Shown here: positions 8,985-55,464 of the stretch, piece by piece
Numbering within the stretch: position 1 is the first letter of the stretch
How the letters are laid out: the number at the start of each line of letters is the position of its first letter
DNA from: a virus
Length of the DNA stretch: 64,000 nucleotides
Strand: one strand, 5' to 3'
Virus record (IMG/VR): IMGVR_UViG_3300050821_017219
Location: 14,383-78,382 of that record
Made by a program: the position numbers and the translations under genes
Notes under the pieces: generated by a model
Database searches by the model: none
What the model saw: the letters and a program-made list of their open reading frames with translations, nothing else
Told to the model about the DNA's origin: nothing

Positions 8985-9056
8985 CGAGATGAAATTGTAG
9001 CATAATCGGCTACGGATGCTTAGATTCATCCGCAACCGTGACGTTGCAGTTGGTCG

Positions 9057-34238: not shown

Positions 34239-34252
34239 GCTACACTGACGCC

Positions 34253-36391: not shown

Positions 36392-36449
36392 CTTTCGGCG
36401 CAAGCAGACTCATCATTGACGACGCATCGATTCGTTGGAGAAAGAAAAA

Positions 36450-36995
36450 ATGACAGCCACGACAACGCCGACGCCGGTGACGCCAGAAGCCGCCGATGAC
36501 ATCGTCGACTTCGACGAGCGAAAATTCGAGACGCAGGAAGACTTCTCGAAGGCGCTCTTCAAGGAGATCCTCGATCGATCCGGCCTGGATTCGTTCGGAG
36601 ACGTCCCGATCCCCAAGCGCGCCGTGTGGGAAGACCCCGGTGGGTCGCTGATGAACATCGAGATCAACGAGCCGTCGCCCTTCGACAAAAACTCCATCGT
36701 ACTTGGGCTCTTCCACGACGATGAAGAGGTGCGTGTCTATACCCTCCCGAAACAACGAGGCGAAGCGAAGCGCTACTGTCTCTCCAAGCGCGGTCGCACG
36801 TTCGTCGTCGAGACCTTCTCGTCGCTCGAGATGATCATCGACTCGTTGGCCGAAGAGTATCACGTCTTAGGTATCACTACCGAAGTCATCGACGACGATG
36901 ACGACGACGACGAAGACGAAACTCCAGCGAATGGCGTCACAAACGATGGCGTTGCTGCAACGCCTTCGTCGGCAACGCCGTCGGTGACGTCGTGA
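36450..36995 (+). CDS. Acidic hypothetical protein
   Basis: GGAG RBS; poly-Asp tail. Confidence 0.65.
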   Translation: MTATTTPTPVTPEAADDIVDFDERKFETQEDFSKALFKEILDRSGLDSFGDVPIPKRAVWEDPGGSLMNIEINEPSPFDKNSIVLGLFHDDEEVRVYTLPKQRGEAKRYCLSKRGRTFVVETFSSLEMIIDSLAEEYHVLGITTEVIDDDDDDDEDETPANGVTNDGVAATPSSATPSVTS

Positions 36996-37801
36996 ATACC
37001 ACCGTCACGTGCGTCTATCGCATCGCGCAAGGCGGCGCGGCGTTGACGACGCTTCAGTCGAAGGTCGCCGCCGTCGTCGTCAACTCTTCCATTCTGTCGA
37101 CGCTCGGCGCGCGTATCACGAGCGACGTCACTACCATCGCCGCCGGTTTCGCCATCCGAACCATCGTCTTTTCGATCGTGCCGACGGTCGCAGCCGGCGC
37201 GACGGCAGCGCTCAACTCCAACGACTTCCTCTCCGGCGTGTCGGTCTTCTCGGCCGGCTCTGACTACATTCTGCCGCCCGTCGTCAAATTCGCTGGTGGA
37301 AACCCCTACAAAATCGCGTCGGCGCGCGCGACGTTGAAGGCCGTCGGCGTCAACGTCGTCGCTGGTGGCTCAGGCTATACCGCAGCGGCGGTCGCAACAG
37401 CCGTCGGTGCGATCAACCCCAACCATGACATCAAGCTCGGCCAAGCCCCACCGAAGCCTGTCTTGATGACGTTGACGCTTGGCGGTGGCGGAGCCATCGT
37501 CGGCGTCGCCATCACCGATGCGGGCGCTAACTACGAAGGCGTTCCCTCGGTTGTCGTCACCGACGTCGTTGGGGGTGGAAGCGGCGCCATCATCGATCTG
37601 TCGATGGGCGTCAGCGCCGTCGATGTGATCTACCCCGGGCAAGGCTTCCAGGCGGTTCCGGCGTGTCAGCTGATCCCAGCCTTCCGTGTGATGTTCCCCG
37701 ACGGACCTTCGCAGGCGGCACCTTTCGCGAACCTCATGACGACGGCGATTGCGCAAGCAGTGATGACGCCGGTCGTTGCGGATGCGCCGGTGTTGTCATG
37801 A
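36992..37801 (+). CDS. Beta-repeat structural protein
   Basis: Four VxVxxxGxxY/F repeats (AGSDY, GGSGY, AGANY, PGQGF) as in virion/surface proteins. Confidence 0.6.
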   Translation: MNTTVTCVYRIAQGGAALTTLQSKVAAVVVNSSILSTLGARITSDVTTIAAGFAIRTIVFSIVPTVAAGATAALNSNDFLSGVSVFSAGSDYILPPVVKFAGGNPYKIASARATLKAVGVNVVAGGSGYTAAAVATAVGAINPNHDIKLGQAPPKPVLMTLTLGGGGAIVGVAITDAGANYEGVPSVVVTDVVGGGSGAIIDLSMGVSAVDVIYPGQGFQAVPACQLIPAFRVMFPDGPSQAAPFANLMTTAIAQAVMTPVVADAPVLS

Positions 37802-39303
37802 CGCGCGAAGATGACAACTACGACGAGCGAGACGACGATGACGGCGAAGGCGAGCCGCCTGAAGAAGTCGTCGAAGCCAAAACGAAGGCAATACCGCCGA
37901 AGAAGCGCAATCCGAAAGCGCGAAACGGCGTCGGTGGAGCGTTGGGTGGTGCGCCCGAAGATTCGCCGCGTGAAGCTGAGCTGCTCTGGCTGTGGATTCT
38001 CGCGCGACTTCCCAGCGAAGGCCGCTCCGCCTACGACGTGACCATCCAAGTCTTGCAGCTCGATCCACCCGCCTCAAACGGCCGCGCCTTCATGGTGGGA
38101 AGCTTCGGCGGTGGCGCAATCCGCGGCAGCGAAACTGTTGATCCGTCGCAGGCGTTGATCAGCTACGTCACCGACAACTTTCACATGCCGCGGTCTCAGT
38201 CGAGACAGTCGGTGACCTACCAGATCCGCTTCATCTGGGCATCGAACAGCCAGCAGATGAAGCGCGGCGAGCTGACGCTTCCCCCGCGCGACGAGATCAT
38301 CGCCGTTCGACAAGAAGAGGCGCGCCAGCGGCAGGCCAACGGCGAGCCGGTGACCCCCTACAACCCGCCGCCGATGCATCAGCAAGGCGTCGGTGTGCCG
38401 CAACCATGGCCGCAGCCGTTTGGCTTTCCGCCGTCTTACTACCCCCCGCCTGCCGGTGGCGATGCGCAGATGATGCCGCAGCTGCTGACGATGATGCAGG
38501 AGATGTGGCGCGCGCAGCTCGAAGGCCGCCCACCCAATCCCGCAGCTGCCGGTGTCGCTGCGCCACCACCCGCGCCTCTCAACGAAGACAGCATCGTACA
38601 GAAAACGACCGCCAGCGTCTTGATGGCGCTGCAGCAAGCCGGCATCTTGACGAAGCCAACCGCCGGTGTCGCCGCCGCAACGCCAACGCCTGCGGTCTCG
38701 CCTGCGTCGCCGGCTGCATCGAATCCATTCGCAGGCATGATGGAAAAAGCCGTCGGTCGCATGTTCGAGGCGGCCGTCGGTGAGGTGGAGAAAAGCGTCA
38801 AGAAGACCATCGCTGGCGTCGGCAAGCCGCAAGACGACGACTATTACTTCGACGACGATGACGATGGAAAGAAAGGCGGATCATCTTCGCCTGCATCTGC
38901 AGCCGTTGGCGTTGGCGCGCCACCGACACCGCCGAAAGAAGACGCCTTCGATCTGCCGTGGGCGACGAAGCCAGTCGCCGATGCGAAGTGGGGCGACGGC
39001 CGCCCAGTCGTCTACGCCGAAGACAAAGAGACCGGCAACTTCTCGTGGCAGGGCGCGCTCATGAGCAACCCCACCGTGCTCGAGAAGGGGATGGAAGCCG
39101 CGCAGGGTCTCGCCGGAGCGTTGACGAACATCGTGAAGCAGGTCGGCGCCAAAGCTTCCGCCGGCTTCGCGCAGGCGCCGCAGAATCCGCCGCCGCAGAT
39201 GACGCCGAAGACGGTTTCGATACCGCCTGCCGCAACGGTTGTGGCGGAGACGCCCGCGGGCGCGGTGGATGCGACGCCAAAGTCTTGGAAAGACGGCGAC
39301 TAG
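37798..39303 (+). CDS. Pro/Gln-rich multidomain protein with repeated GVG/GVA motifs (putative scaffold/assembly protein)
   Basis: ATGA coupling; six GV(G/A) motifs in low-complexity linkers. Confidence 0.65.
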   Translation: MTREDDNYDERDDDDGEGEPPEEVVEAKTKAIPPKKRNPKARNGVGGALGGAPEDSPREAELLWLWILARLPSEGRSAYDVTIQVLQLDPPASNGRAFMVGSFGGGAIRGSETVDPSQALISYVTDNFHMPRSQSRQSVTYQIRFIWASNSQQMKRGELTLPPRDEIIAVRQEEARQRQANGEPVTPYNPPPMHQQGVGVPQPWPQPFGFPPSYYPPPAGGDAQMMPQLLTMMQEMWRAQLEGRPPNPAAAGVAAPPPAPLNEDSIVQKTTASVLMALQQAGILTKPTAGVAAATPTPAVSPASPAASNPFAGMMEKAVGRMFEAAVGEVEKSVKKTIAGVGKPQDDDYYFDDDDDGKKGGSSSPASAAVGVGAPPTPPKEDAFDLPWATKPVADAKWGDGRPVVYAEDKETGNFSWQGALMSNPTVLEKGMEAAQGLAGALTNIVKQVGAKASAGFAQAPQNPPPQMTPKTVSIPPAATVVAETPAGAVDATPKSWKDGD

Positions 39304-39324
39304 CAGCTCTGCTACGATTGCGGT

Positions 39325-40665
39325 GTGACAACGACGCCGCATTGGCCGCAGGTAGTGGTGCCGCGCCGTGTCGGTGTCGCCGGTCTGACCGATTTTGAGG
39401 CGCACTTCGCGTCCGACCCCAACTTTGCGTCGGCGTGGAACGATGTCGGTGGCCAGCTCCTCGCCGAAGGCGCTAGCAGCTCGCAGGTCGACCAAGCGAA
39501 GACGTGGTTCGTCAACGCCGTCGAGGGAGCTGTCCCTGGGGTAACCGGCGACCAGGCCATCGCCTCCGCGAAGCAGCTCGTGCTGCTTGGGCAGACGGTC
39601 ATGGGCGCCGTCGCTACGGTGCAAGGTCTTCTCCAGACCGTCGAAAGTGGGTCGGTCCCACAAATTACGCAGGCGTTTACCGGCGTCTTGATCAGCCTCG
39701 GCGTCGGCACTGGGTTAGTCTCGGCCGGTATCGGCGCGGCCATCGCGCTCGGCATCTCCGTCGTGTTGGCGGCGCTTCAAGACCTTGGATTTTTTACTAG
39801 CAACGCCCCTCCGACATTTGACATCCCTGGGTGCGGCAAGTGGTACTGGGTGCCGGACTACCTCATCGGATGCATGGGCGTTCAAGCGAAGGGCGGCACT
39901 GCCAACGATCCGCTCTTGACGCAACCCTTTCATGTCGCGCCGGGCTCCCCCAACTGGCGGACGTTCCCGGTGCCGGGCAACATCATCCCATACGTCGAAG
40001 GCGCGGACAAAGAATGGTACGTCCCTGGGTTGGGGATGGTTGGCCACTGGAAGGGCATCTTCATCGACTACGGCGCCGTCGATGCAAGCGATGGGCGGCG
40101 GCCGATCGATCGCGCGTTTCCGAATTTTCGGCAGCTCGAAGCGGACAGCGGACCGGGAGCAAGCGACTTCCAGCGCGCGTTCGGTGGCGCATGGCGAAGC
40201 AACGCGGAGTATGCGTTCAACGGGTTGAAGCCGCAGCCAGACGAACAGGTGCTGCTCCATACCATTCGATTGTGGAACCGTTCGCACGATGGCCCCGCAG
40301 TTACGCTCGATCAAAGCAACGCGACCTACGCCAATTCGCTCGTCGACGCCGCCGTCAACAACGTGATGTCGAGTGACATCGGTTTGCTGTCTGGCCAAAG
40401 CTTGCTCGTCAACGCCGGTGGGTTGAAAACCCAAACGCCACGTGTCGTCACGCTGCATCTAGGCGGTAGTTTCGATTCAGCGACGTCGCCAACAACCGGC
40501 CTTATGTCGTCGACGGGTGGAAAAATTCTCGCGGGTACAGCTGCAATCGGCGGCGCCGCACTGCTCGGAAGCGCGGCGTACGCCTTCGCAAAGAAAGAGA
40601 GCATCGGCGCCGTCTGGAAGAACGTCTTCAAGACGGTGACGAAACCTCTGAGAGGTGGAAGATGA
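39325..40665 (+). CDS. Membrane-associated putative virion protein
   Basis: N-terminal TTPHWPQ..VGVAG; internal and C-terminal hydrophobic helices. Confidence 0.7.
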   Translation: MTTTPHWPQVVVPRRVGVAGLTDFEAHFASDPNFASAWNDVGGQLLAEGASSSQVDQAKTWFVNAVEGAVPGVTGDQAIASAKQLVLLGQTVMGAVATVQGLLQTVESGSVPQITQAFTGVLISLGVGTGLVSAGIGAAIALGISVVLAALQDLGFFTSNAPPTFDIPGCGKWYWVPDYLIGCMGVQAKGGTANDPLLTQPFHVAPGSPNWRTFPVPGNIIPYVEGADKEWYVPGLGMVGHWKGIFIDYGAVDASDGRRPIDRAFPNFRQLEADSGPGASDFQRAFGGAWRSNAEYAFNGLKPQPDEQVLLHTIRLWNRSHDGPAVTLDQSNATYANSLVDAAVNNVMSSDIGLLSGQSLLVNAGGLKTQTPRVVTLHLGGSFDSATSPTTGLMSSTGGKILAGTAAIGGAALLGSAAYAFAKKESIGAVWKNVFKTVTKPLRGGR

Positions 40666-40988
40666 GACGAAGACACGGTCGTAGAAATCCTTCGACGCAA
40701 ACGACGACGCTGCTGATCGCCGGTGGCGGTTTGGCGCTGCTCGGCGTTGGCGTCTACCTCTTCACGAAGAAGCCAGCGGCGGCGACAACGACGACTGCGA
40801 TCACGGCGACGTCACCAAATTCTCGACCGTTCGGTGACCCCGCCAACACGTCGAGCGTCGCGTTCGCGTGCAACACCTGCTGGAAGCTGAACGCACTCGG
40901 CCATCCGACGCAGGCGACGGCGTGGTGCACGAAATGCACCGCCAACGGTGGGGTAGTACCGCAAAGCGCTGCTCAGTTGTATACTTGA
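40662..40988 (+). CDS. Small membrane protein (RRNP + TM + Cys-rich domain)
   Basis: MRRRHGRRNP, TM LLIAGGGLALLGVGVYLF, CxxC pairs. Confidence 0.7.
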   Translation: MRRRHGRRNPSTQTTTLLIAGGGLALLGVGVYLFTKKPAAATTTTAITATSPNSRPFGDPANTSSVAFACNTCWKLNALGHPTQATAWCTKCTANGGVVPQSAAQLYT

Positions 40989-41036
40989 GGCGCCGGTAGT
41001 CATTTTTGACGGCGACGCAAGACGAAAAGATAAAAA

Positions 41037-41393
41037 ATGGCCGACATTTACGACACGCTGACCCCCGCCGACCAGGCAACGGTTCGCTCGAAGCTGCTCG
41101 CGATCGTGCAGTCGAAGCCCTGCCCGAACGTCGACGTGACAGGCATCACCACCGTCGACAGCCTCACCAGCGCGGACAATCGCGGCATCGCCATCGATTG
41201 CTTCCAGCAAGCGCACAAGGTTGGCGCCGTCGCAGGCGCGCTCGATCAGGCGACTTACAGCGCGCTCGTCGGATGGTGGCCCGCGCGGCCGTTGTGGCAG
41301 AAAGCGGCGATCGTCGGCGGAGGCGTCGCAGCGGTGGCGGTTGGATACCATCTCATGGCGAAGCGAAGCCGTCGGCGTCGGCTAAGTCGTTGA
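41037..41393 (+). CDS. Peptidoglycan-binding-like domain with C-terminal TM and basic tail
   Basis: AIDCFQQAHKV..VAGALDQATYSAL resembles PG_binding_1; TM followed by KRSRRRR. Confidence 0.6.
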   Translation: MADIYDTLTPADQATVRSKLLAIVQSKPCPNVDVTGITTVDSLTSADNRGIAIDCFQQAHKVGAVAGALDQATYSALVGWWPARPLWQKAAIVGGGVAAVAVGYHLMAKRSRRRRLSR

Positions 41394-41459
41394 TGTAAAC
41401 GTCTGAAATTTCAGACAATTTTCAACTTTCAAACGCAAAAACAACCAAACGAGACTCCG

Positions 41460-41858
41460 ATGACGAAGAAACATCAGACGTACATGATCGTTGGTGGCGT
41501 CGCGCTCGCGGCGCTCGCCGTCGGTGGCATCGCCTACGCGCGCATGAAGGCGGCAGCGCCTCCAGTTCCTGCCGGTCAGCTTCCCGCCGGGACCCCCGCG
41601 ACCACTTTCACCGCCGGTACGAAGTACACCTTCGCCGCCGTCCTCCCCGCGGGCGCGACCGACCAGGCGACGCTCGTGACGATGCTCCACACCGCAGGGT
41701 GGCAGACGCCTGCGGTCATCTTCTTCGGTCCGACGAACACCGGAACGATTCCGACCGGTCTCGAGGCCAACACGTCGGGGTACGTCGCGACGGGCATTTG
41801 GCAGGGCCCCGCCACACCGGTACCGGCGGGTGTCATCGCTGTCGTGTCGCCTCCGTGA
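41460..41858 (+). CDS. N-terminally anchored small membrane protein
   Basis: TM IVGGVALAALAVGGIAY followed by a beta domain. Confidence 0.7.
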   Translation: MTKKHQTYMIVGGVALAALAVGGIAYARMKAAAPPVPAGQLPAGTPATTFTAGTKYTFAAVLPAGATDQATLVTMLHTAGWQTPAVIFFGPTNTGTIPTGLEANTSGYVATGIWQGPATPVPAGVIAVVSPP

Positions 41859-42259
41859 TCGACGCTGCGGTCTCCTCACAGCTTTCGACGCTTCGCTTTC
41901 GGCAAAGTCTCGTCGACGCTGCGCCATCGCCCGGCGGCAGTAGCGAAATCGTCGCGCTCGTTCCGTTCAACTTCGCGACGACGACGTTGGTGCTCGGCCC
42001 AATCCACGCTGGGTGGGTCGTCAACGAGGTCGTCTACGACATCCTGACGCCCTTCGCTGGCGCAACGGCGCTGAAGTTCGGCACGTCGACCAACGCGAGC
42101 CTCTTCTTCGAGCTCGATACCCCCATCATCGGCATCGCGCAGCAGTACGTTTCTCCGCTCATCATCGTCGCTCCGATCAACGATATCCTGCTGTTGAACG
42201 TCAGCGGTGGCGCTTTGGCGGGCGCAGGTTTACTGTTCTACCGGATCTTCACGCCGTAG
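41855..42259 (+). CDS. Small beta-sandwich virion protein (paralogue of the 42270 C-terminal domain)
   Basis: GTGA coupling; motif match to the C-terminus of the next gene. Confidence 0.65.
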   Translation: MIDAAVSSQLSTLRFRQSLVDAAPSPGGSSEIVALVPFNFATTTLVLGPIHAGWVVNEVVYDILTPFAGATALKFGTSTNASLFFELDTPIIGIAQQYVSPLIIVAPINDILLLNVSGGALAGAGLLFYRIFTP

Positions 42260-42269
42260 GTAAGACCAG

Positions 42270-43085
42270 ATGGCGAACGCATTTCAACGACTTGCCGGCG
42301 TCATCGCCAACTTCTTCCAGATCGGCGGCCCCGCCGGCCCCGGCTGGAACGCGAACGGCGGCGCCATCGAAGGCCGCAACGCCGCCAATTCAGCGTTTGC
42401 GATCGTTCGGGGCGCGACCCCCGTCGGCGACAACGACCTGACGACGAAGACCTACGTCGATACGATCTTCAAGCCGATCCCCGTCTCGCTTCAGTTCAAC
42501 GGTGGCAGCGCGCTGCCGAGCAACAGCGGCACCGAGCAGTACTACGTCGTCACGACGACCGGGGTCAACGCGACCATCGGTCAAGTTCTCTGGGATGACG
42601 GGTCTGGCGTTGGAACGGTCACCGTCCTTCCCGCGAAGACGGGCAACGAGATCGTCACGACGGCTTCGTTCTCTGGCGGCACGATCACGCTTCAGTCGAA
42701 CCAAAACTACGTCTGGTCCGGTACGGCGTGGCTCAACATCTCCCCCTCGGTTGCTGGCGCGCTCCTCTGCATCCGTCTGCCGATCACCAATGCGGCATCG
42801 CAGAGCTCCGCCACAACGATCCCCGCCAACGCCGTCGTCGCGCGAGCGCTCCTCAACATCACGACCCCCTACTCCGGTGGCGCGACCATCTCCGTTGGCC
42901 AAACAGGATCGACGGCGCTGCTGATGGCGACGGGTGACAACGTCGCGACGCTCGCCAACATCTACGACGCCCCCCAAGACACCGCGTGGGGCGCGAGCGC
43001 GCTGGCGTTGCTCGTGACCGTCGGTGGCGCGCCAGCTGCAGGTGCTGGCTTCGCGGTTGTATATTACAGCATCCCGCAGGTTTGA
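42270..43085 (+). CDS. Beta-rich virion (spike/vertex-like) protein
   Basis: Strong C/G-ending codon bias, Gly/Thr/Ala-rich. Confidence 0.7.
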   Translation: MANAFQRLAGVIANFFQIGGPAGPGWNANGGAIEGRNAANSAFAIVRGATPVGDNDLTTKTYVDTIFKPIPVSLQFNGGSALPSNSGTEQYYVVTTTGVNATIGQVLWDDGSGVGTVTVLPAKTGNEIVTTASFSGGTITLQSNQNYVWSGTAWLNISPSVAGALLCIRLPITNAASQSSATTIPANAVVARALLNITTPYSGGATISVGQTGSTALLMATGDNVATLANIYDAPQDTAWGASALALLVTVGGAPAAGAGFAVVYYSIPQV

Positions 43086-43107
43086 CGCATGCAACTTCGA
43101 GTCTGAG

Positions 43108-43362
43108 ATGAGCGGTTTCAACAACAACAGCGGCACGACGCAGTCGTCTTTCGAGATCGGCGGCCCCGCCGGACCGGCGCTGCAAAGCGATCCGCTCGTT
43201 CAAGCGATCAATCTGCTCGACCCGACGGGAACGATCCTTCTCGCACTGCGAGCCGGTTGGGCCGTCAACCCCAACGACGTCGTGACGCTCGTGCGGCTGC
43301 AATCGATTCTGAATCCACCGCCGCCGTTGGGCGATCCATGGGCGTCTTCTTCCGCAGGATGA
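43108..43362 (+). CDS. Small protein paralogous to the 42270 N-terminal domain
   Basis: FEIGGPAGP vs FQIGGPAGP; shared DNA agatcggcggccccgccgg. Confidence 0.6.
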   Translation: MSGFNNNSGTTQSSFEIGGPAGPALQSDPLVQAINLLDPTGTILLALRAGWAVNPNDVVTLVRLQSILNPPPPLGDPWASSSAG

Positions 43363-43375
43363 TGGGGATGACATC

Positions 43376-44107
43376 GTGAGCCAACAAGGACCGACCGGCT
43401 TCATCACCTCGCAGGGGCTGCCCAACCCGAAGCTGCCCGATGGCCAAGGCGTGTTGGCTCGTGTTGGACCGCACCGTGAGGTCTACACGAACCTTGTGCT
43501 GCCCGACTTCAAGACGTCGGCGGACGAGGGGAGCTACTTCACGGGAACGAACGCAACGTTTGGCGCGGCTATAGCCGCAGCAAATCAAGCGGCCTTCTCG
43601 GCGACGTCGGCTATCTTCACCTTCTTGAACAAGGCTGGCGTCGGTGGGCCGCGAACCTATCTCGACTACATCCGTTTGATTTGCACGGCAGCTGGAACAG
43701 CGTCGGCGAGTATGCAAATCGGCGTCGTTACCGACGCGATCGTACGTGGAAGCGCCGGAACCCCCGTGACGTTGGTGTCGCCCAACCAAGACGCTGGTGT
43801 CGGCGCGAACACGCAAGTGCTCTACACCCCGACGGTAGCGGCTGCAGGTCTTGCTGCGAGAAACGTCGATCGCGCTTGCGCCAAAGGCGCAGGACTCGCG
43901 ATAGGCGATGAAATTCTGCTCGTCTTCGGAACCGTCGAGAAGTCAGCGAGCGCCGCATTCGCTGCAACAGCCGGGCGATTCGTGGTGCCGATGGCTCCAG
44001 TCATCCTTGGGCCTGGCAGCGTTCAGAGCGCCGTCATTCATGCGTGGTTTCCGAGTATCACCGCAGCAGCATCGTTCGAGTTCGCCGTTGGTCTCCTCGA
44101 ACGTTGA
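43376..44107 (+). CDS. Beta-rich putative minor capsid/vertex protein
   Basis: Jelly-roll-like alternating pattern, ends ASFEFAVGLLER. Confidence 0.6.
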   Translation: MSQQGPTGFITSQGLPNPKLPDGQGVLARVGPHREVYTNLVLPDFKTSADEGSYFTGTNATFGAAIAAANQAAFSATSAIFTFLNKAGVGGPRTYLDYIRLICTAAGTASASMQIGVVTDAIVRGSAGTPVTLVSPNQDAGVGANTQVLYTPTVAAAGLAARNVDRACAKGAGLAIGDEILLVFGTVEKSASAAFAATAGRFVVPMAPVILGPGSVQSAVIHAWFPSITAAASFEFAVGLLER

Positions 44108-44143
44108 TTGTCAAGCGCTTTCGCTGCTAGACTGACACCCATG
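44104..44143 (+). promoter_or_regulatory. Sigma70-type leaderless promoter (representative example)
   Basis: TTGATT-18nt-(TGc)TAGACT-7nt-ATG, no SD. Confidence 0.5.
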
Positions 44144-45039: not shown

Positions 45040-45078
45040 CTTTCGACGCTAGCGGCGTCTTGCGGTAGACTGAACGCC

Positions 45079-45345: not shown

Positions 45346-45349
45346 AAAG

Positions 45350-47653: not shown

Positions 47654-47660
47654 GCGTCGA

Positions 47661-48125
47661 ATGATCATCGTCAAAGGGAAGGCAGTCAGCTTCGACATGG
47701 CGAACGGCGACGAAATCGATGCGCCAGCGCGCTCGGCGATGTTGCACGATCCGCGCGGCAAATTCTGGCGTCGAAATTCTATTCTTGTTGCGCCATTCAA
47801 ACGCGGCGGCGGTGGTGAAGTCGACGGCGACAGCGACTCGAAAGACTATCTCGGCCGAACGCATCTGACGCGCGTCGGTGATGTACCGCTTCCCCCGAAA
47901 GAGTTGTCGGCCTGGACGTACGAAGGCGAAGTGAGCGAGATTTGGTACACGCGTCACGGCGCAAAGTACGGCGGCAAGCGGTTCCGCCACGCGTTCAACA
48001 AGTCGTTGCTCGGCCGGCTCGTGAAGGGAACCGGCAAGGCGCGGCTGTACAGCCGTGGTAGTCTCTACCGATTGGAGCTACCGCGCGGCGCCATTGTCGA
48101 TGGGAGAGGATTTTTATGGCCGTGA
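47661..48125 (+). CDS. Basic hypothetical protein (putative virion/core protein)
   Basis: GEVSEIWYTR...KRFRHAF; located in the structural block. Confidence 0.6.
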   Translation: MIIVKGKAVSFDMANGDEIDAPARSAMLHDPRGKFWRRNSILVAPFKRGGGGEVDGDSDSKDYLGRTHLTRVGDVPLPPKELSAWTYEGEVSEIWYTRHGAKYGGKRFRHAFNKSLLGRLVKGTGKARLYSRGSLYRLELPRGAIVDGRGFLWP

Positions 48126-48637
48126 TCTGGAAGTCTGTCGTCGGTTACGAGGGGTTGTACGACGTCTCTGACGAAGGACAGATCCGGCGTGTGGCGCCGG
48201 GGCGACGTACACACCCCGGGCGTATCGTTGTCGGTGGCGTCTCGAAGGGGCGTTACCGCATCGTCAAACTCTATCGAGGAACGACGAAGAGCGACTTCCG
48301 CGGGTTCTCCGTTCACGGTCTCGTCGCGGCAGCCTTTCTTGGCCCGCGTCCGGAAAGGGGCGAGGTGAACCACAAGAACGGCATCAAGACGGACAACAGG
48401 CTCGAGAATTTAGAGTACACAACCCGCCTCGGAAACGCGCGCCACGCAGCAGTGAACGGGCTGCTCCGAAACGGCGAACGAGTCGTCGGCTCCAAGCTTA
48501 CGGCCGACAATGTTCGCTCCATCCGCGCTCTGTCCGCTTTTGGCGTTCCGAAGCGACGGATCGCGAAGATGTTCGGCATCGCGCATTCGACCACGCAAAG
48601 CATCATCGACCGTCGTTGGTGGAAGCACGTCGCATGA
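48116..48637 (+). CDS. NUMOD4-HNH homing endonuclease
   Basis: WKSVVGYEGLYDVSDEGQIR, VHGLVAAAFLG, VNHKNGIKTDNRLENLEY. Confidence 0.92.
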   Translation: MAVIWKSVVGYEGLYDVSDEGQIRRVAPGRRTHPGRIVVGGVSKGRYRIVKLYRGTTKSDFRGFSVHGLVAAAFLGPRPERGEVNHKNGIKTDNRLENLEYTTRLGNARHAAVNGLLRNGERVVGSKLTADNVRSIRALSAFGVPKRRIAKMFGIAHSTTQSIIDRRWWKHVA

Positions 48638-50166
48638 TCGATTATTCGCGCATGATTGACGCCAGCCGCAACGCGCCCGAACACGCGGCATCTGCGCCCG
48701 TCTTCTACGAAACAGCGAAGACGAAGACGCGCGCGCGTAGCCGTCGTTTGACAAAGCGCAAGAAACAAGCTTCACTTACAAAAGCGCGCGACCGGAAATC
48801 CACGAACCGTCGTCGTCGAAGCACCCCAGGGAAGGCTGCATCGATGGCAAAGCGAAGAATGTCGAGAAAGCAGCGCGCAGCGGCGCTGAAGAACCTCAAG
48901 AAGGCTCGCTCCGCCCGTCGGAGCAAAGCTTCTCGGCGCGGGATGCGCGTTCGGCTTCATCGGAAGTCGCCCCGTCGGCGCCGCTACATGACCGGCGGTG
49001 GTGTGAAGACGAAGCGTCGTCGTCGCCGCAAGGCCAAGCCGGAAGCAGAAGCAACACCGAAGCGTCGTCGGCGTAAGTCGGGCGGCAAGCGGAAGTCGGC
49101 CAAGCGAGTCGCGGCTGGCAAGAAGGCCGCTCGTACGCGCAAGCGCCGTCACTCCCGCAAGGGTGGCGCACCGAAACGCCGTCGTCGTCGGTCGCGCAAA
49201 GCCTCGGCGGCTCCCCGGCGGCGGCGTCGGCGTTCACGTCGGTCGTCTCCCCGTCGTCGTCGGCGCAGCCGCAAGACCGGTCGGGCGATGTCGATGCGAC
49301 TCCCCCGTCGGGCGCGCAAGGTCTACGTCGTCGCCGCCGAGAAGCGCCGTCGTCGTGGACGCGGCCGTCGTCGTCACGGCGCGATGGAAAATCCGCTCTC
49401 TGGCGTCGAGCTGTTCGTCGGAAGCCTCTTCGGGTTGACCGGCTTCGCCATCGGCGATCTCACCGACCGCCTCATCGCGACCCACGCGTTGACGTTGAAG
49501 AGCGCCGCGACCACCACCACGCCGGCCCTCTACGCCGACAACCCCCCGACGACCGGCAGCTACGCTGGCCTCTTCAATCCGACGGCGATCACTTCGCCGA
49601 TGAACCTCCCCCGATGGGCGAACGCGGTCGGTGCTCCGGCGCTGATCTTCACCGTCGCACACTTCGTCAAGTCGCCGGTCGCGCGCAGTTCGATGCAGTT
49701 CTTCGCCTTCGGTTACGGCGTCCGTGGTGTCGGCAAAGGCATCATGGACCTCATGGCCAAAGTGACGACCAGCTTCGGCCTCGGTCAGCGCCTCTACGAC
49801 GGCGAGATGCGAGCGCAGGTGCTCAAGGCCAACAGCGGCAGCAACCAAGCGGCAGCGCTTGCGAACTTGCCCGCCGCTGGCCTCGGTCAACCGGCTCGGC
49901 AATTGGCGGTAGCGCCTTGCGCCAATTGCGGCAATTGCGCGAAATGCAAAGCAGCAGCGGCACCGAGCGGCGTGGGTTGGCCTTCGCAGCCCCGCGAAAT
50001 CACCAGCCAGTCGACGCAGACGCAACCGCAGGCTCCCGTATCCGCGACTGCCCCACCGCGTCAGCCCCCGCCTCCCCCCAACGCTCCTCCGATTCGACAG
50101 CAGTCGTTTCTCACCGGCGCAGCGGCGCATCCTACCTACAAGAAGTGGGGCGGCTACGATTTGTGA
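48634..50166 (+). CDS. Arg/Lys-rich protamine-like protein with C-terminal hydrophobic domain (putative DNA-condensing core protein); alternative start 48844
   Basis: About 180 aa dominated by R/K/S with SPRRRR-type motifs, then AMENP, hydrophobic helices and CxxCxxCxxC. Confidence 0.75.
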   Translation: MIDYSRMIDASRNAPEHAASAPVFYETAKTKTRARSRRLTKRKKQASLTKARDRKSTNRRRRSTPGKAASMAKRRMSRKQRAAALKNLKKARSARRSKASRRGMRVRLHRKSPRRRRYMTGGGVKTKRRRRRKAKPEAEATPKRRRRKSGGKRKSAKRVAAGKKAARTRKRRHSRKGGAPKRRRRRSRKASAAPRRRRRRSRRSSPRRRRRSRKTGRAMSMRLPRRARKVYVVAAEKRRRRGRGRRRHGAMENPLSGVELFVGSLFGLTGFAIGDLTDRLIATHALTLKSAATTTTPALYADNPPTTGSYAGLFNPTAITSPMNLPRWANAVGAPALIFTVAHFVKSPVARSSMQFFAFGYGVRGVGKGIMDLMAKVTTSFGLGQRLYDGEMRAQVLKANSGSNQAAALANLPAAGLGQPARQLAVAPCANCGNCAKCKAAAAPSGVGWPSQPREITSQSTQTQPQAPVSATAPPRQPPPPPNAPPIRQQSFLTGAAAHPTYKKWGGYDL

Positions 50167-50324
50167 TTGATTCGATAATCGTTTCGCTGTTCGACGGACG
50201 TATCGAAGGCAACGAAAAACGCGAGACTTACTTCTCTCCACGACGCTGCGACGATCGACACCCACACAAGAGACGACGATAAGAGCCTGAGAGGTTACTC
50301 GTCATCTCTGGAGTCGATCACCAA

Positions 50325-51692
50325 ATGGCTACGCAAATCGTTTCTCGACCCAGTCAGTTCAAGACGCGAGCGAAGATGCTCTCGCGCGCCGAGCGCGGCA
50401 TCGCTCTCGTCAAGGCCGTCGGAACCGGTCTTCCCATCGACGCGGCGAAGATCAAGGCGTCAGGGAATGACCCCCGGCGCGGCATGGGCGCCGTCCTCGA
50501 CCTCATCAAGGCGTCGAAGGAAAACCCCTGGTGGAACATGGACGTCGTCGAGCAGGTCCGTTGGACCCTCGGCGGACCCCAGACCAATCAGTCGATCACC
50601 GAAAACTTCGGTGCGACCATCGACTTGTTCGCTTCGGGGAAGTCGCCGGTCGACATCGACTTCGTCGAGACGACCATGGCGCAGCCTGGTCAGACGCAGA
50701 CCTTCTTCGTCGCCTGCTATGTCGGCTTCCACCTCGAGCCCGACCCCATGACGTTCACCCTCCGAGGGAACGCGTGGACGCATCCGACCGCGGCGGTCGC
50801 GAAGCCCCCGTCTCCCGACGTGTTCAGCGCGAACGACGTCGCCAACGGCGCGCTCGGCCCCGCCTTCGCCGGCACGCCGACGCAGACGATGCTTCCCGCG
50901 ATCATGGAGCACGGCTGGTGGCTCAACCGAGCCTTCTGGGAGCTCGTGCGCGCCTACAACTTCCGATGGAAGATCGGCCAGCACATCAACATCATGGACG
51001 AGCAGTTGCGCCACACGGCGTACATGCCCCCGAACGCTCAGGAAGGCAGCGCGTCGAGCTCGGAAGTGGATCCGTTCAATCTCATCAATCAGATGAACAC
51101 CCGCTACGACACGCTCGGAACGGCGCTCGACTTCCTCCCGATCGACTTCTTGAGGATCGGATCAGTCGGAAGCACGACCGTCAACAACGGCCGCTTCACG
51201 CCGAGCCGTGACTTCGATACCGTCGGCGTCACCTACGGTGGTTCCGACCTCCGAAGCATGCTGCGCGGCAACAGCGAGTTCCGCCAGCTGTGCGTTCCCT
51301 ACGTGATCGAGCCGGGCGTTCCCATCGGCATCTTCCTCCAGGAATGCGACAGCGTTCAGGCGGACATCATGCGCGCGCTGCTCAGCATCTCGCAGGTCGG
51401 CGGAAACTTCGGCGGATCGATTCCCCCGGCAGTCACCCCCGACGGCAACATCAACGGCGGCTTCACGAGCACGGGCGCCGCGGTCATGTTGGAGCGCACC
51501 CTCGACGGTGCAGACGTCCCCCAGCAGATCGACACCCAGCGCGTCATCTACAAGAGCGGCGTCGGCAAGATCACGCTGCCGATCAAGGGCTTCGAGGTCA
51601 CGAAGGATTGGTACAACCAACTCTCTTCGGATTCGGACATCCGAGACATCGTGCTCTCCGACTGCGGGATGCGATTCGCGGCCTACGGTTGA
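50325..51692 (+). CDS. Putative major capsid protein (non-HK97, possibly jelly-roll)
   Basis: Very strong C/G-ending codon bias by eye, GGAG RBS, beta-rich, follows the core-like protein; no HK97 signature seen. Confidence 0.5.
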   Translation: MATQIVSRPSQFKTRAKMLSRAERGIALVKAVGTGLPIDAAKIKASGNDPRRGMGAVLDLIKASKENPWWNMDVVEQVRWTLGGPQTNQSITENFGATIDLFASGKSPVDIDFVETTMAQPGQTQTFFVACYVGFHLEPDPMTFTLRGNAWTHPTAAVAKPPSPDVFSANDVANGALGPAFAGTPTQTMLPAIMEHGWWLNRAFWELVRAYNFRWKIGQHINIMDEQLRHTAYMPPNAQEGSASSSEVDPFNLINQMNTRYDTLGTALDFLPIDFLRIGSVGSTTVNNGRFTPSRDFDTVGVTYGGSDLRSMLRGNSEFRQLCVPYVIEPGVPIGIFLQECDSVQADIMRALLSISQVGGNFGGSIPPAVTPDGNINGGFTSTGAAVMLERTLDGADVPQQIDTQRVIYKSGVGKITLPIKGFEVTKDWYNQLSSDSDIRDIVLSDCGMRFAAYG

Positions 51693-51720
51693 TCGGAGCG
51701 CCGCCTAAAGGAGGCGTTTC

Positions 51721-52470
51721 ATGACTCAGCCGTTGATCACGATGACGGAAGAGCAGCTCCAAAGGCTGCTCGCTTCGTCGCAGAAAACCACAACCGGAGT
51801 GGCTGGCCCGCCCAAACAGCGCGTTCAAGGCTTCGGTTGCCCCGGCGATGGAAACCCGCAGCTCGACGCGGTCTACGCGATGCTTGCTGCGGGTAACCCC
51901 CGTCTCGCCTTGGCCCGCGCCCGCGGCGTGCCGTTCGCGCCGTTCTACATCAACATCCGCGCTACCTTTCCCGATACGGCCACCACGGTCGTGCCGAGCG
52001 TCGGTAGCGACGTGAAGATCTCGCAAGACACGCTCGTCAACGAGATGGTCGTGCGCATCTTCAACCGATCGTTGACGGCGAATCAGAACCAGTTCCAGGC
52101 GCAATCGGATTGGTACTACACGTGGCAGAGCGGCATCGAAGCAACGTTCGACATCCAAGGCGCACCCCGCCCGACGATTGCGGACCGCTTCACGCCCCTC
52201 GCCAATCTGCTCGACGCCTTCAACGGCTACAGCAAGCGCGCCGGTCACGGGTGGATCCTTACCTACCAGCAGCAGCTCTTCATGGCGTTCAACGCTACGA
52301 TCACGCTGCCGACGGCGCCCATCGAAGTCGTGTGCACGTTCGCCTGCGAGACACCGGTGTCGCAAGCGTTTACGCGCATGTCCAATAGCGAAGCCATCGC
52401 GTCGCTGCGGAGCGAATTCGGTGTCGAGATCGCAGACGCCTACGAGCAACAGGCGCTTCTCTACGGTTGA
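51721..52470 (+). CDS. Putative second capsid protein (beta-rich)
   Basis: AAGGAGG RBS, strong codon bias, N-terminal GVAG/GFG motifs. Confidence 0.45.
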   Translation: MTQPLITMTEEQLQRLLASSQKTTTGVAGPPKQRVQGFGCPGDGNPQLDAVYAMLAAGNPRLALARARGVPFAPFYINIRATFPDTATTVVPSVGSDVKISQDTLVNEMVVRIFNRSLTANQNQFQAQSDWYYTWQSGIEATFDIQGAPRPTIADRFTPLANLLDAFNGYSKRAGHGWILTYQQQLFMAFNATITLPTAPIEVVCTFACETPVSQAFTRMSNSEAIASLRSEFGVEIADAYEQQALLYG

Positions 52471-52475
52471 TCTGA

Positions 52476-53327
52476 ATGCGCTCTCTCGCCGAAAAAGCGT
52501 CGCTCGGCGCCGAGACGGGAAGCCGCCGCGTCTTTGAAATTTCAACGTCAGGAATTGACGAAAATCTTCAGAGTCTCGGCGGCGATCCGTTTGGTGGGTC
52601 GTCGTACGTCGGGTTGCGTGTTCCGACGTTGGCGACGCCATCGCTGCCCAACGGCGGCGGTCGATATTTGTTCAACCTCGCGTCGTTTTCGATCGCGACT
52701 GGCATCAAGGCGAGAATCGTCGGCTACCGCCAGCTGTTGACGCTCGGCGCCGTCATCACCGCCGCCGGCAGCGAAACAGCGGCGCGCTTCGTCGAGATGG
52801 AGGTCACGACGCCGACGTTTCGTCTACCCGACGGCAACGTCAGCTGGCACATTCATCGCCTCGGCCCGCCGAACAGCCAAGGCTTTCCGCGTGGCATCGC
52901 CGACAAGACTGACTTGCGCAGCTTCAAGAAATACTGGTGTGAAAATCCTGCGCTGCTCTACCAGAGCTACGCGATTCCCGCTGGCAACGCGTTCTACCCC
53001 GACTTGACGGCCTATACGCCACCGAATGGCGGCAAGCCGTGGGGTGTTGCGTTACGCGCGGGCGAACAAGCAACGTTTTACGATTTGCGAACCGAGTGGC
53101 GTACGCACGGCGGTTGGCATTCGCTCGACGTCGAGCTGGATGGACCAGACACCGTCTGCTTCTTCGCGTCTGTGAAGCAAAGCGTTGGCGCATCAGAAGC
53201 CGGTGCGTTGGCTGCGATTCCGAATGGGATGCCGGAAGAGCAATTCGTCAGCGCTTTTGCGGCGAGCGTGACCGGAGCAATCTACTGGCGCGTTGCGGGC
53301 GCGCTGATGGTGGAGGTACGTCCGTGA
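52476..53327 (+). CDS. Putative capsid-associated beta-rich protein
   Basis: Ends YWRVAGALMVEV like a terminal jelly-roll strand. Confidence 0.45.
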   Translation: MRSLAEKASLGAETGSRRVFEISTSGIDENLQSLGGDPFGGSSYVGLRVPTLATPSLPNGGGRYLFNLASFSIATGIKARIVGYRQLLTLGAVITAAGSETAARFVEMEVTTPTFRLPDGNVSWHIHRLGPPNSQGFPRGIADKTDLRSFKKYWCENPALLYQSYAIPAGNAFYPDLTAYTPPNGGKPWGVALRAGEQATFYDLRTEWRTHGGWHSLDVELDGPDTVCFFASVKQSVGASEAGALAAIPNGMPEEQFVSAFAASVTGAIYWRVAGALMVEVRP

Positions 53328-53977
53328 GATGGTCGGCCGCTCGCCAAGGTCGCCGTAGCTATTATCGCGCCGAGAGCTCGAAGGGCTATTACCGCATCGA
53401 ACATCGCCCGAGCGGTTGGGTCGTCGACATGACTATACACAACGGGCGTGATCATGTCATCGGAACATTCTCATCACTTGCCGGAGCCAAAACAGCTGCC
53501 TCGCAGCATGATCGAGGGTTTATGAGTCGTCGTCGTAGAAGCCGTCGTCGCCACCACGCTGCAGAAGCGAACCCCATCTCGTCGTCGACCAAGAAGTGGC
53601 TTGTCATCGGTGGCCTCACCGCAGTTGCCGGAGTCGGTCTCTACCTCTACATGAAGAAGATGTCGGCCTTGACGCAGATGCCGATGCCTGCGGCGCTACC
53701 GCCCGGTACTGCGCCGATCAACCTAACGCTGTCGCCCGGCAACCTGTCGGCGGTCACACTCAGCGCCGGCAACAAGGCCGCGTTGAGCCTCTTCGCGCCG
53801 CAGGGCTCAACGTTGCAGGTGATGAACTGGAACCCCGTCGCGCCGCTCGCTCCGGCGACGACGTCGAACTACGAAGTCGTCGCGGCGACGCCAGGCAACT
53901 CGACCGTCACCGCGACCTACAAAGACGCGTCGGGCGCAACGCAGACGGCGACCATCCCCATCGTCGTCACCGCTTAG
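53324..53977 (+). CDS. Small domain + Arg-rich + NP motif + TM + Ig-like protein (alternative start 53522)
   Basis: GGAGG-GTG start; SRRRRSRRRHHAAEANP, TM WLVIGGLTAVAGVGLYLYM. Confidence 0.65.
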   Translation: MRWSAARQGRRSYYRAESSKGYYRIEHRPSGWVVDMTIHNGRDHVIGTFSSLAGAKTAASQHDRGFMSRRRRSRRRHHAAEANPISSSTKKWLVIGGLTAVAGVGLYLYMKKMSALTQMPMPAALPPGTAPINLTLSPGNLSAVTLSAGNKAALSLFAPQGSTLQVMNWNPVAPLAPATTSNYEVVAATPGNSTVTATYKDASGATQTATIPIVVTA

Positions 53978-53983
53978 ATTTCA

Positions 53984-54400
53984 ATGTCAACGGCGATCGT
54001 CAAATTCAACCATGTCGATCGTCGCATCGGCGTTGGCGATCCGCTGACTGACGCGGGCGCAGCTCTCGCGCAGGCGATGATAGCGTTGCAAGCGGGTGTC
54101 GCTTCGTTGCCGGCGAATGATTTGCTGACGTCGCAGCTGTCGACGCAAGTCGCCGCAGTCGCTACGGCGCTCGGCGGTTACATCGCGCAGGTCGGCGCGC
54201 TCGAGACGAGCCTAGCGGCGACGCAACATCAACTCGAGTTATGCCAAGCCGCGCAAGCGACGCCGACGACACCGGTTGGCGCAGCGACAACGACTCCGAC
54301 GGCTGGCGTGTCGCCGTCGGCCGCAAGCTTCATCGCCGTCGGTAGCGCGCTTCTAGGCGGCGTCGCCGGCTACGCGGTTCGTGGTAAGATGAAACGCTGA
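53984..54400 (+). CDS. Coiled-coil protein with C-terminal TM
   Basis: N-terminal RRIGVGDPLTD; C-terminal TM followed by RGKMKR. Confidence 0.7.
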   Translation: MSTAIVKFNHVDRRIGVGDPLTDAGAALAQAMIALQAGVASLPANDLLTSQLSTQVAAVATALGGYIAQVGALETSLAATQHQLELCQAAQATPTTPVGAATTTPTAGVSPSAASFIAVGSALLGGVAGYAVRGKMKR

Positions 54401-54413
54401 AGAAAGCCGAATC

Positions 54414-54929
54414 ATGATGCAATCAACAACGCCGCATTGGCCGCAACCCCCGCAACACCATCACGTCGGTGTCGGCGCCGTCAACCAAGGCTTGACCGAT
54501 GCTGCGCAAGCGGTGGTCAACTTCTTCGCGGCGAATGCGTGCACTCGTGCATCAATCCCCGAAGTCGCGTCGTTTCAAGCGACGTACAACGGAAGCGGGA
54601 TGCCAGGGCATCTCACCGTCGACGGACAGTACGGCGGCAACACCGAGCGCGCATTGCAGATCGTGCTCAACAATGCCCCCGCGGCTGGTGGTGGTGGTCC
54701 AGTGCAAGCTGTACCTCCGAACTGCTTCGGTATGGCGGTGCCTGATACTCCGGCGTTGGATCCGTCAACACCGACAGCGCCAACCGCGCCGGCAACGACT
54801 ACAACGACGACGACAACTACGTCAACCCCTTCGACGATGTCACCGTGGATCATCGGCGGTGCTGCAGCTGTCGTCGCCGGTGGCGTCGGCTACGCCGTCT
54901 ACCGCGCGCGCAAACGCCGTCGCGGCTAA
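54414..54929 (+). CDS. Peptidoglycan-binding-domain protein with C-terminal TM and basic tail
   Basis: VASFQATYN...LTVDGQYGGNTERAL (PG_binding_1), Thr linker, TM, RARKRRRG. Confidence 0.75.
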   Translation: MMQSTTPHWPQPPQHHHVGVGAVNQGLTDAAQAVVNFFAANACTRASIPEVASFQATYNGSGMPGHLTVDGQYGGNTERALQIVLNNAPAAGGGGPVQAVPPNCFGMAVPDTPALDPSTPTAPTAPATTTTTTTTTSTPSTMSPWIIGGAAAVVAGGVGYAVYRARKRRRG

Positions 54930-54984
54930 GCGACGAAGACGTATCTGAAGACGCATTCCAAATCCAACAGCCGAAGACAAAACG

Positions 54985-55464
54985 ATGCCCATCCCCTACG
55001 GTAATGGCGCTGACTACGCGGCGGCAGCGCTTCTCAGCCTCGCTGTCTACGGCCAAGGCGCACTGAAAAATCAACAGCCGGGCGGTGTTCTCGCAACCTT
55101 CGAGGTGTTGAGCACCGGAACGCACGTGCTGACCGGAAGCTTCCAGACACTCGCGCAGACCGGAAGCATCACCTACGTCGCAGGGCAGAAGGCCATCTTG
55201 ACGGTGTCGGTCGCCGCCGATGTGACGAGCTCGGGGTTGAGCGGAAACCTGGAGATTCAGGTCACCGACAACGGCGTGCCGATCACAACGGGCATCACCC
55301 AGAGCTACCCGACGACCGGCCCTGGCGTCTCCGCGATGTGGCAGGTCGAAGTGTCACCGGTCGGGCCGCATGTGTTCGCTGTGCAAGCGCTCGCGGCTGG
55401 CGACGGTACGCTCTCCGTTGCTGCCGGACACGGCCGCATCGGCGTCATCAATTCTGCCGTCTGA
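54985..55464 (+). CDS. Beta-sandwich (C1q/BclA-head-like) protein
   Basis: Resembles the head of 2767-3660 (GQKAILTVS vs GQRVFIWAS; GPHVFAVQ vs GVQTYAFV). Confidence 0.55.
   Translation: MPIPYGNGADYAAAALLSLAVYGQGALKNQQPGGVLATFEVLSTGTHVLTGSFQTLAQTGSITYVAGQKAILTVSVAADVTSSGLSGNLEIQVTDNGVPITTGITQSYPTTGPGVSAMWQVEVSPVGPHVFAVQALAAGDGTLSVAAGHGRIGVINSAV

Follow-up and report, generated by a model that had tools for sequence, protein, structure and literature searches.

A candidate virion module with jelly-roll-type and membrane proteins in a 78-kb soil virus genome with no recognizable tailed-phage hallmark genes

To our knowledge, almost all known bacterial double-stranded DNA (dsDNA) viruses with genomes above about 45 kb are tailed, with an HK97 capsid, a portal and a terminase. 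The IMG/VR virus record IMGVR_UViG_3300050821_017219 (78,382 bp) raises the question of what kind of particle could be built by a virus of this size in which none of these genes is recognized. Here, we analysed a window of 64,000 nucleotides (bases 14,383-78,382 of the record) as well as the other 14.4 kb of the genome, with the focus on a block of about 25 co-oriented genes at positions 36,435-55,464. Positions are those of the window, and coordinates prefixed L001 belong to another numbering. An initial annotation, made from the window alone, had attributed the block to a large tailless, membrane-containing temperate virus with an adenovirus-like assembly toolkit. Our results suggest that the block is probably the virion module of a non-tailed, probably temperate dsDNA virus that infects a soil bacterium and is represented by its complete genome. 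Its build, which combines a jelly-roll shell with small membrane proteins and a protamine-like protein anchored in the membrane, has so far been described only in much smaller viruses.

Shell, membrane and core candidates of the virion module

The first and last 97 bases of the 78,382-bp record are identical. In IMG/VR, it is listed as a virus having direct terminal repeats, with its completeness estimated at 100%. Therefore, the whole genome of approximately 78.3 kb was available, and the content of the sequence flanking the window could be determined. The best explanation is a genome of about 78.3 kb that is circular or terminally redundant; its GC content is approximately 61% throughout. 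Between about 16.6 and 60.4 kb, every open reading frame (ORF) is on the plus strand. The family to which the element belongs was represented by seven IMG/VR loci and 34 metagenome loci, which came from soils, peat and rhizosphere according to their Joint Genome Institute (JGI) identifiers. Genome size is tightly conserved among the relatives (69-82 kb). End repeats are also present in two of the relatives for which a size of 73-78 kb was determined. The genes for small membrane proteins, a transglutaminase-like protein, a basic 154-amino-acid protein, a polybasic/hydrophobic protein and proteins of 455, 249 and 283 amino acids follow one another in a conserved order. Four complete or near-complete genomes have in common a core set made of the virion module, including 36435, 36992 and 37663 (start as in the ORF list), the replication genes for an SNF2 helicase, an exonuclease, AAA_24, PolA, a RecD-like helicase and a RadC-like domain, and the integrase. 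Full-text searches of the literature found no description of this lineage. An undescribed lineage of at least 64 kb had been anticipated by the initial annotation, and the best explanation is indeed that the element, at 78.3 kb, belongs to a broad, undescribed lineage.

No gene of the genome is more conserved or more codon-biased than that of the candidate major shell protein (50325-51692, +; 455 amino acids). The G+C content at third codon positions (GC3) of this gene is 0.86, the highest of the genome, followed by 0.80 for 51721 and 0.71 for 52476, compared with approximately 0.70 for the genome. The description of these three ORFs as beta-rich and biased thus held, the products of the first two being modelled as beta-sandwiches. 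A collection of 5.8 billion proteins yielded 270 homologues of the 455-amino-acid protein, all unnamed, with larger contigs of 60-82 kb, and a full HMMER pass over 1.84 billion representatives grouped the family into 183 clusters at 50% identity. The protein is 45-94% identical across contigs of 60-82 kb, and contigs of 121-142 kb also carry shell-protein homologues. A tblastn search with it found nothing in 50,697 GenBank phage records or in 72,556 plasmids (PLSDB). Its AlphaFold2 model, with a predicted local distance difference test (pLDDT) value of 78 and a predicted template modelling (pTM) score of 0.77, is mostly beta and forms a beta-sandwich. With this model, Foldseek found nothing significant in PDB or BFVD, and the weak rows were jelly-roll capsids. 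The best fold rows, which lie below the tool's level of meaningful match, include HCIV-1, SPV1 and PRD1 P3 (approximately 170 residues aligned for the latter), and a BFVD row (I1ZBH9, probability 0.97, 211 amino acids) has no name in the tables. A jelly-roll-type fold is therefore weakly indicated for the modelled protein. The single-domain matches span residues ~45-450 of the chain, from which we infer one jelly-roll core with large insertions, and not two jelly rolls in tandem.

The second shell protein candidate (51721-52470, +; 249 amino acids) has 231 homologues. Its AlphaFold2 model (pLDDT 81) is also a beta-sandwich, in which N-terminal helices are followed by an eight-strand jelly roll at residues 72-213. 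The top Foldseek match was the SPV1 capsid 6oj0_A (E 1.2e-3, probability 0.98), for which a score of 7.3 was obtained with a root mean square deviation of 3.2 over 119 of 178 residues. Its VIA scores were 7.5 with the major capsid protein of EhV-201, 7.1 with PBCV-1, 6.9 with HHIV-2, 6.8 with Faustovirus, 6.4 with STIV A223, 6.3 with ASFV p72, 5.8 with phiCjT23 and 5.3 with FLiP. Since an equally high score (8.0) was obtained with peptidylglycine monooxygenase, which is a cellular jelly roll, the predicted jelly-roll fold is firm but the capsid role of this protein would follow from its genomic context. The third protein of the conserved trio (52476-53327, +; 283 amino acids) has 23 orthologues in the fetched loci and showed no Pfam family, no PDB match and no profile relation to the 455- and 249-amino-acid proteins. 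Its ESM Atlas model was too poor to use (pLDDT 0.42), with feature matches under 0.8, and from its position only, the protein is a candidate vertex or minor shell protein. A profile-profile comparison of the three families detected no mutual relation, an hmmsearch of PDB sequences with four family profiles found nothing, and the SPV1 capsid proteins have no sequence similarity to the shell candidates. The predicted complex of the 455- and 249-amino-acid proteins received a score of 0.00, which counts neither for nor against their binding.

Clear membrane segments were identified by a hydropathy scan and direct reading of the translations in 12 of the 25 block genes, namely 39325, 40662, 41037, 41460, 44108, 44617, 45079, 45350 (C-terminal), 48616, 53522, 53984 and 54414. 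Elsewhere in the genome, about 11 of 95 genes have such segments (Fisher p = 1.7e-4, based on crude gene calls). In most of the 12, runs of Arg/Lys stand beside the helix, for example MRRRHGRR..., ...KRSRRRRLSR, MSRRRRSRRR... and ...RARKRRRG. The co-oriented block with about a dozen small, basic-tailed membrane proteins, as first noticed, was thereby recovered. This enrichment is indirect evidence, and the only evidence, for an internal lipid bilayer.

The gene at 48616-50166 (+) encodes a polybasic, membrane-anchored protein of 516 amino acids with no Pfam or PHROG match. Residues 1-255 contain 113 Arg/Lys (44%), in agreement with the protamine-like protein recognized at the outset, and hydrophobic segments follow in the C-terminal half. 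This two-part build, polybasic then hydrophobic, is kept in 21 orthologues. Based on its composition, we propose that the protein both tethers and condenses the DNA. Adenovirus protein VII and protamine are like it in composition only, and the 516-amino-acid protein is membrane-anchored whereas those are not.

The abundance of small membrane proteins, the membrane anchor of the polybasic protein and the lack of a packaging motor would also fit an enveloped or pleomorphic virus with no icosahedral shell, in which a cell-derived outer envelope surrounds a polybasic nucleoprotein core and the jelly rolls act as matrix, nucleocapsid or spike proteins. The jelly-roll matches are moreover too weak to prove a capsid role. 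Such a virus is nevertheless unlikely, considering that three strongly conserved soluble beta proteins are encoded in a row, one of them by the most codon-biased gene, as expected of a shell protein, and that, among viral proteins, those matched best form the shells of internal-membrane viruses. The encoded lysis enzyme likewise fits release by lysis and not budding, and the enveloped bacterial dsDNA viruses that we know of are small.

Upstream of the polybasic gene, 45350-47653 (+) encodes a membrane-anchored transglutaminase-like Cys-His-Asp protein of 767 amino acids (447 once spliced) with a C-terminal membrane helix. This gene is conserved in all relatives, and an alignment with five orthologues showed that Cys438, His470 and Asp486 are invariant in the six sequences, in line with the membrane-anchored Cys-protease-like protein described earlier. 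A 320-amino-acid intein (45701-46660, +; residues 118-437) with a LAGLIDADG homing-endonuclease domain lies directly before the catalytic Cys438. Exactly this stretch is absent from the five orthologues, which places the insertion between Gly-Asp and Cys438. The intein matches LAGLIDADG_3 with 22.7 bits (cut-off 22.5), its Hint match is weak, and direct reading revealed Cys1, a TGEH (T-x-x-H) block, a terminal Asn and a +1 Cys. Intein-less orthologues scored 21.7, 22.6 and 17.2 bits (E 1.4e-4 to 6.5e-3) against Pfam Transglut_core (PF01841), just under its curated cut-off of 23 bits, and the full profile was covered in two of them. No Pfam match to an adenain-type peptidase domain was obtained, and the only protease-like core found is transglutaminase-like. 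Together, the Transglut_core matches of the intein-less orthologues and the intein before Cys438 point to a predicted membrane-anchored transglutaminase-like enzyme, the catalytic Cys of which would be restored only by splicing. Because the intein sits exactly at the catalytic Cys, this enzyme of the virion module is marked as important for the virus. A putative role in maturation and one in cell wall passage or entry would be equally conceivable.

Tail, capsid and packaging genes

A genome of this size, with such a replication module and an integrase, is what one would typically expect of a tailed phage. Both a tailed-phage-like replication module and an integrase, as initially reported, are indeed present, the latter also in four of the five related genomes. 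These traits would suit a very divergent tailed phage, the terminase, portal, HK97 capsid and tail proteins of which had drifted beyond detection. Weak PHROG matches to tail fibre, baseplate hub, collagen-like minor tail and head closure proteins, as well as end repeats compatible with headful packaging, point in the same direction. We consider such a phage decidedly unlikely in view of the following results. Six-frame profile searches of this genome and four relatives of 69-78 kb gave no match at E <= 1 to Terminase_6N, TerL_ATPase, Phage_portal, Phage_capsid, FtsK_SpoIIIE or Pox_A32 in the five genomes, while control genomes responded; among the portal families of Pfam, the search covered Phage_portal. 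Comparison of all 16 ORFs of at least 400 amino acids with Pfam and PHROGs identified no terminase, portal, HK97 capsid, tail tube, sheath or tape measure, and no ORF has the size and character of a tape measure protein. The absence of terminase, portal, HK97 capsid and tail genes, first noted for the window, thus extends to the flanking 14.4 kb and to four relatives. The 455- and 249-amino-acid models are beta-sandwiches, and no HK97 row appeared in four fold searches, including those made with the 50325 product, for which an HK97 fold had been named as the outcome to look for. Their fold lists contained no portal or terminase rows either, keeping in mind that absence from such lists excludes no fold. 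Furthermore, 42 diverse relatives of the 455-amino-acid protein matched no PHROG family, and the weak "tail fiber" matches are confined to collagen-like N-terminal parts.

A six-frame Walker-A scan retrieved as family-matched ORFs the D5 helicase, AAA_24 and the RecD-like helicase, all of which are replication proteins. The other matches were short ORFs and frames without family assignment, with a dNMP (deoxynucleoside monophosphate) kinase nearby. The same picture was obtained for three relatives, in which the one apparent extra match was due to chance and lay inside the Arg/Lys-rich protein. Hence, no family-assigned Walker-A ORF lies outside the replication module in these four genomes, although the terminase tests would miss a protein of an unknown family with a deviant Walker A. 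The conserved P-loop proteins of the relatives are of replication type only, and AAA_24, which always stands among replication genes, is the one conceivable non-canonical packaging motor among them. The initial annotation had left two options, a packaging ATPase encoded outside the window or packaging by co-assembly. As none was found in the whole genome, the first option was not upheld and the second is favoured. A complete genome with no terminase, portal or FtsK/A32-type ATPase makes co-assembly probable, as proposed for SPV1, so that the DNA would be enclosed by joint assembly of nucleoprotein, membrane and shell and not pumped into a preformed shell.

A non-viral mobile element, for example an integrative plasmid with the block as a membrane or cell-surface apparatus, would account for the integrase, the many membrane proteins, the circular-looking contigs and the lack of packaging machinery, but is very improbable since no conjugation-type ATPase was found and no relaxase was seen, 72,556 plasmids gave no match, genome size is tightly held at 69-82 kb, the fibres, lysis enzyme, GroES homologue, homing endonucleases and intein are phage-like traits, and the best viral fold matches are capsid proteins.

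Several points weigh against a complete, temperate, non-tailed virus. The identical contig ends would also fit a headful-packaged, terminally redundant genome. The DNA could be packaged by the conserved AAA_24 ATPase or by a motor that belongs to an unknown family. Outside the block, several genes have weak PHROG matches to "tail fiber", "baseplate hub" and "collagen-like minor tail". The evidence is wholly computational. Finally, no integrated copy was found, and the term temperate therefore rests on the conserved integrase. One relative (L031) lies on a 148.7-kb contig, the retrieved part of which is still viral at 17.9 kb.

Other genes of the block and of the genome

Three starts in the ORF list of the window were amended (37663 to probably 37798, 53039 to 53522 and 44440 to 44617). 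At the upstream end of the block, 36435-36995 (+) encodes an acidic protein of 186 amino acids (isoelectric point [pI] 4.2), conserved in G001, G003 and G004 and without family match, which is a possible scaffold or assembly factor. The next gene (36992-37801, +) encodes a conserved Gly/Ala-rich beta protein of 269 amino acids with a weak match to PHROG 460 'head closure' (E 3.5e-7) over 79 residues only; the product is a candidate virion surface protein. It is followed by a conserved gene (37798-39303, +) for an acidic, Pro/Gln-rich protein of approximately 500 amino acids with no Pfam or PHROG match. An alignment of seven orthologues was made, and the protein consists of an Asp/Glu run, a small globular domain and low-complexity linkers. 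As the only acidic ORF of about 500 amino acids in the genome, it was considered as a portal and rejected, being largely low-complexity and unlike a portal. The 446-amino-acid product of 39325-40665 (+) has N-proximal membrane helices, a C-terminal helix and a basic tail, with orthologues in L003, L005 and L007. Three small single-pass membrane proteins with basic ends and no significant Pfam match are encoded at 40662-40988, 41037-41393 and 41460-41858 (+).

Three variable beta-rich proteins are encoded at 42270-43085, 43024-43362 and 43376-44107 (+). They are poorly conserved in the relatives, as judged by tblastn synteny, and have no family match; the products of 42270 and 43024 have an N-terminal motif in common (paralogy E 1.5e-4). 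The products of 43376 and 42270, which the initial annotation had flagged for structure comparison, are not conserved in relatives and are therefore unlikely to be shell proteins. These two are more likely variable surface proteins, and all three are candidates for host recognition or accessory functions. Three further small membrane proteins are encoded at 44108-44617, 44617-45039 and 45079-45345 (+), the last of which is conserved and contains two Gly-zipper-like helices. The basic 154-amino-acid protein (47661-48125, +; pI 10) is conserved and has no family match and no match in GenBank phages. Its gene has 20 orthologues, which always follow the transglutaminase-like gene and precede the polybasic one. 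Here, a gene for a free-standing HNH homing endonuclease (48116-48637, +; PHROG 59, E 1.4e-36) separates the 154-amino-acid and polybasic core genes; it is missing at this site in most relatives. A 38%-identical HNH copy occupies the same intergenic site in L031 (5927-6415), the shell protein of which is only about 50% identical. At the downstream end, 53522-53977, 53984-54400 and 54414-54929 (+) encode three single-pass membrane proteins with basic ends, and 54985-55464 (+) encodes an acidic, beta-rich protein of 159 amino acids that is partly conserved. A peptidoglycan-binding domain, suspected in 54414 from a motif, was not found by Pfam.

The replication and nucleotide module is located on the plus strand at 16.6-36.4 kb, with some genes elsewhere. 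It includes a D5-type primase-helicase, an AAA_24 ATPase, a UDG-PolA fusion, a RecD-like helicase, a Dam methylase, the dNMP kinase, ThyX and a small metallopeptidase. The other 14.4 kb add genes for an SNF2 helicase and a DUF932 protein, and the genome also encodes a PD-(D/E)XK exonuclease. The RecD-like helicase (29349-30125) has 258 amino acids here compared with 443-476 in G001, G003 and G004, which may reflect a split or truncated gene. In each of the four genomes compared, the virion module is directly preceded by a gene (34118-36391, +) for a protein, of 757 amino acids here, with a C-terminal RadC-like JAB domain (Pfam RadC, E 7e-17; PHROG 10276). Only the C-terminal ~150 amino acids of this protein are conserved in G001, G003 and G004. 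Just downstream of the block, 56063-56374 (+) encodes a GroES-like co-chaperonin (phmmer against PDB GroES, E 1.5e-10), with homologues in G001, G003, G004 and L031. This viral GroES-like protein recalls gp31 of phage T4, which is needed for folding the T4 capsid protein. The tyrosine integrase is encoded at 60701-62089 (-; Pfam Phage_integrase, E 1e-21).

A lysis candidate at 9463-10110 (-) contains an Rv2525c-like glycoside-hydrolase domain and is flanked by genes for small membrane proteins at 8568-9035 and 10573-11070, forming a likely lysis cassette (8568-11070, -). Five collagen-like fibres with Gly-Ala-Thr repeats are encoded at window positions 100-2739, 2767-3660, 3696-5438 and 11923-13476 and at L001 13656-14249. 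They have a common N-terminal motif, L-[LI]-V-R-R-[AS]-R-V, before the repeats and differ in their heads, one being pectate-lyase-like and one BclA/C1q-like. The common motif may be a particle anchor, giving several alternative or co-displayed fibres. Beside the fibre genes, 5883-8661 (-) contains two methyltransferase-like genes, one fused to a helix-turn-helix domain, and a glycosyltransferase gene (PHROG 3408, E 2e-58), the products of which may glycosylate or modify the fibres.

Three consecutive predicted lipoproteins (L001 9763-10620, 10802-11410 and 11407-12477) have signal peptides that end in a lipobox Cys. Such signals point to a bacterial host, and the proteins may have a role in superinfection exclusion. 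The genome contains no tRNA gene and therefore offers no attachment-site clue to the host. One relative was found on a 4.4-kb contig of a metagenome-assembled genome of Chloroflexota. The family had no match in 400 other Chloroflexota genomes searched, and this link may therefore be a binning accident. A search of sequencing runs listed no RNA run and only one DNA run, for which the share of the sampled words was 6%. A scan of the block for promoters and terminators gave sites not above the number expected by chance.

Proposed particle and comparison with known systems

In the particle that we propose, the shell would be made of jelly-roll-type proteins, with the 455-amino-acid protein as the main component, the 249-amino-acid protein as the second and the 283-amino-acid protein perhaps at the vertices. 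About a dozen small proteins with basic juxtamembrane tails would be inserted in the virus membrane, which is most likely internal. To judge from its composition, the 516-amino-acid protein would condense the DNA and tie it to this membrane, its polybasic N-terminal half facing the DNA and its hydrophobic C-terminal half embedded in the membrane. Following splicing of the intein, the transglutaminase-like enzyme would act in maturation or in passage through the cell wall. Accessory functions would be provided from outside the block by the GroES homologue, the five collagen-like fibres and the lysis cassette.

More tentatively, and with rather less confidence than we place in the non-tailed virus itself, the element might represent a major lineage of bacterial viruses, at the family level or far above, with a membrane particle made of a new shell protein, a protamine-condensed and membrane-tethered genome and no motor. 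This lineage would be unrelated to tailed phages and at most distantly related to known jelly-roll viruses. If this is true, its members would be larger than all other non-tailed dsDNA viruses known from prokaryotes, and their mode of DNA packing would be the bacterial counterpart to that of SPV1. A widespread soil lineage of 70-80 kb without the tailed-phage gene set would widen the known architecture of bacterial viruses, and large genomes could be enclosed without a recognizable motor. The shell proteins of the lineage form at least 183 clusters at 50% identity, and its metagenome contigs number in the dozens. The lineage would offer new marker genes for virus-detection pipelines and bears on the evolution of jelly-roll capsids and internal membranes.

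The resemblance to adenoviruses is an analogy only, of composition and idea. In outline, both would combine a very basic DNA-condensing protein with a cysteine protease among the structural genes. However, the core of the enzyme is transglutaminase-like and not that of adenain, the basic protein is membrane-anchored, and the element has no IVa2-like ATPase, so the adenovirus-like toolkit of the initial annotation was not retained.

As for membrane phages, the range of 10-30 kb assumed for their genomes was roughly right; SSIP-1 has a genome of approximately 44 kb. The Tectiviridae, Corticoviridae and Autolykiviridae are likewise tailless, with an internal membrane containing many small viral membrane proteins. 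PRD1-type phages carry vertex spikes, and PRD1 P3 is among the best rows for the 455-amino-acid model, but the matches of this model suggest a single jelly roll that carries large insertions and not a tandem pair. In PRD1, the ATPase P9 fills a preformed shell with DNA (PMC6356626), and this element has no such gene. More generally, PRD1-type and sphaerolipovirus-type viruses depend on an FtsK/A32-type ATPase (PMC6356626), which was not found here. P23-77, HCIV-1, HHIV-2, SH1 and SSIP-1 are tailless internal-membrane viruses with two side-by-side genes for jelly-roll shell proteins and many small membrane proteins (PMC5332951, PMC6356626), and SSIP-1 is a membrane phage with two types of capsid protein (PMC6356626). 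The fold scores are not decisive for a likeness to this Sphaerolipoviridae type. In the Sphaerolipoviridae and their relatives, an A32/FtsK-type packaging ATPase gene stands next to the capsid genes, whereas none was found here, and their genomes are far smaller than this element (16-19 kb in Simuloviridae; PMC12642351).

SPV1 is a non-lytic virus of a hyperthermophilic archaeon, with a genome of about 20 kb and no polymerase gene (PMC8459092). In contrast, the present element has 78 kb, with PolA, a D5 helicase, other helicases, an integrase, a lysis enzyme, GroES and bacterial-type lipoprotein signals. The two have no sequence similarity, and the DNA-binding candidate here is polybasic and membrane-anchored. 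The type of host, the size of the genome and its gene content exclude membership in the Portogloboviridae. SPV1 (Portogloboviridae; capsid PDB 6OJ0) is nevertheless the closest described design. No packaging ATPase is recognizable among its assigned gene functions (PMC8459092), and it has a lipid layer under the shell and carries its DNA as a nucleoprotein core, an arrangement that the genes of this element suggest for a bacterial virus as well.

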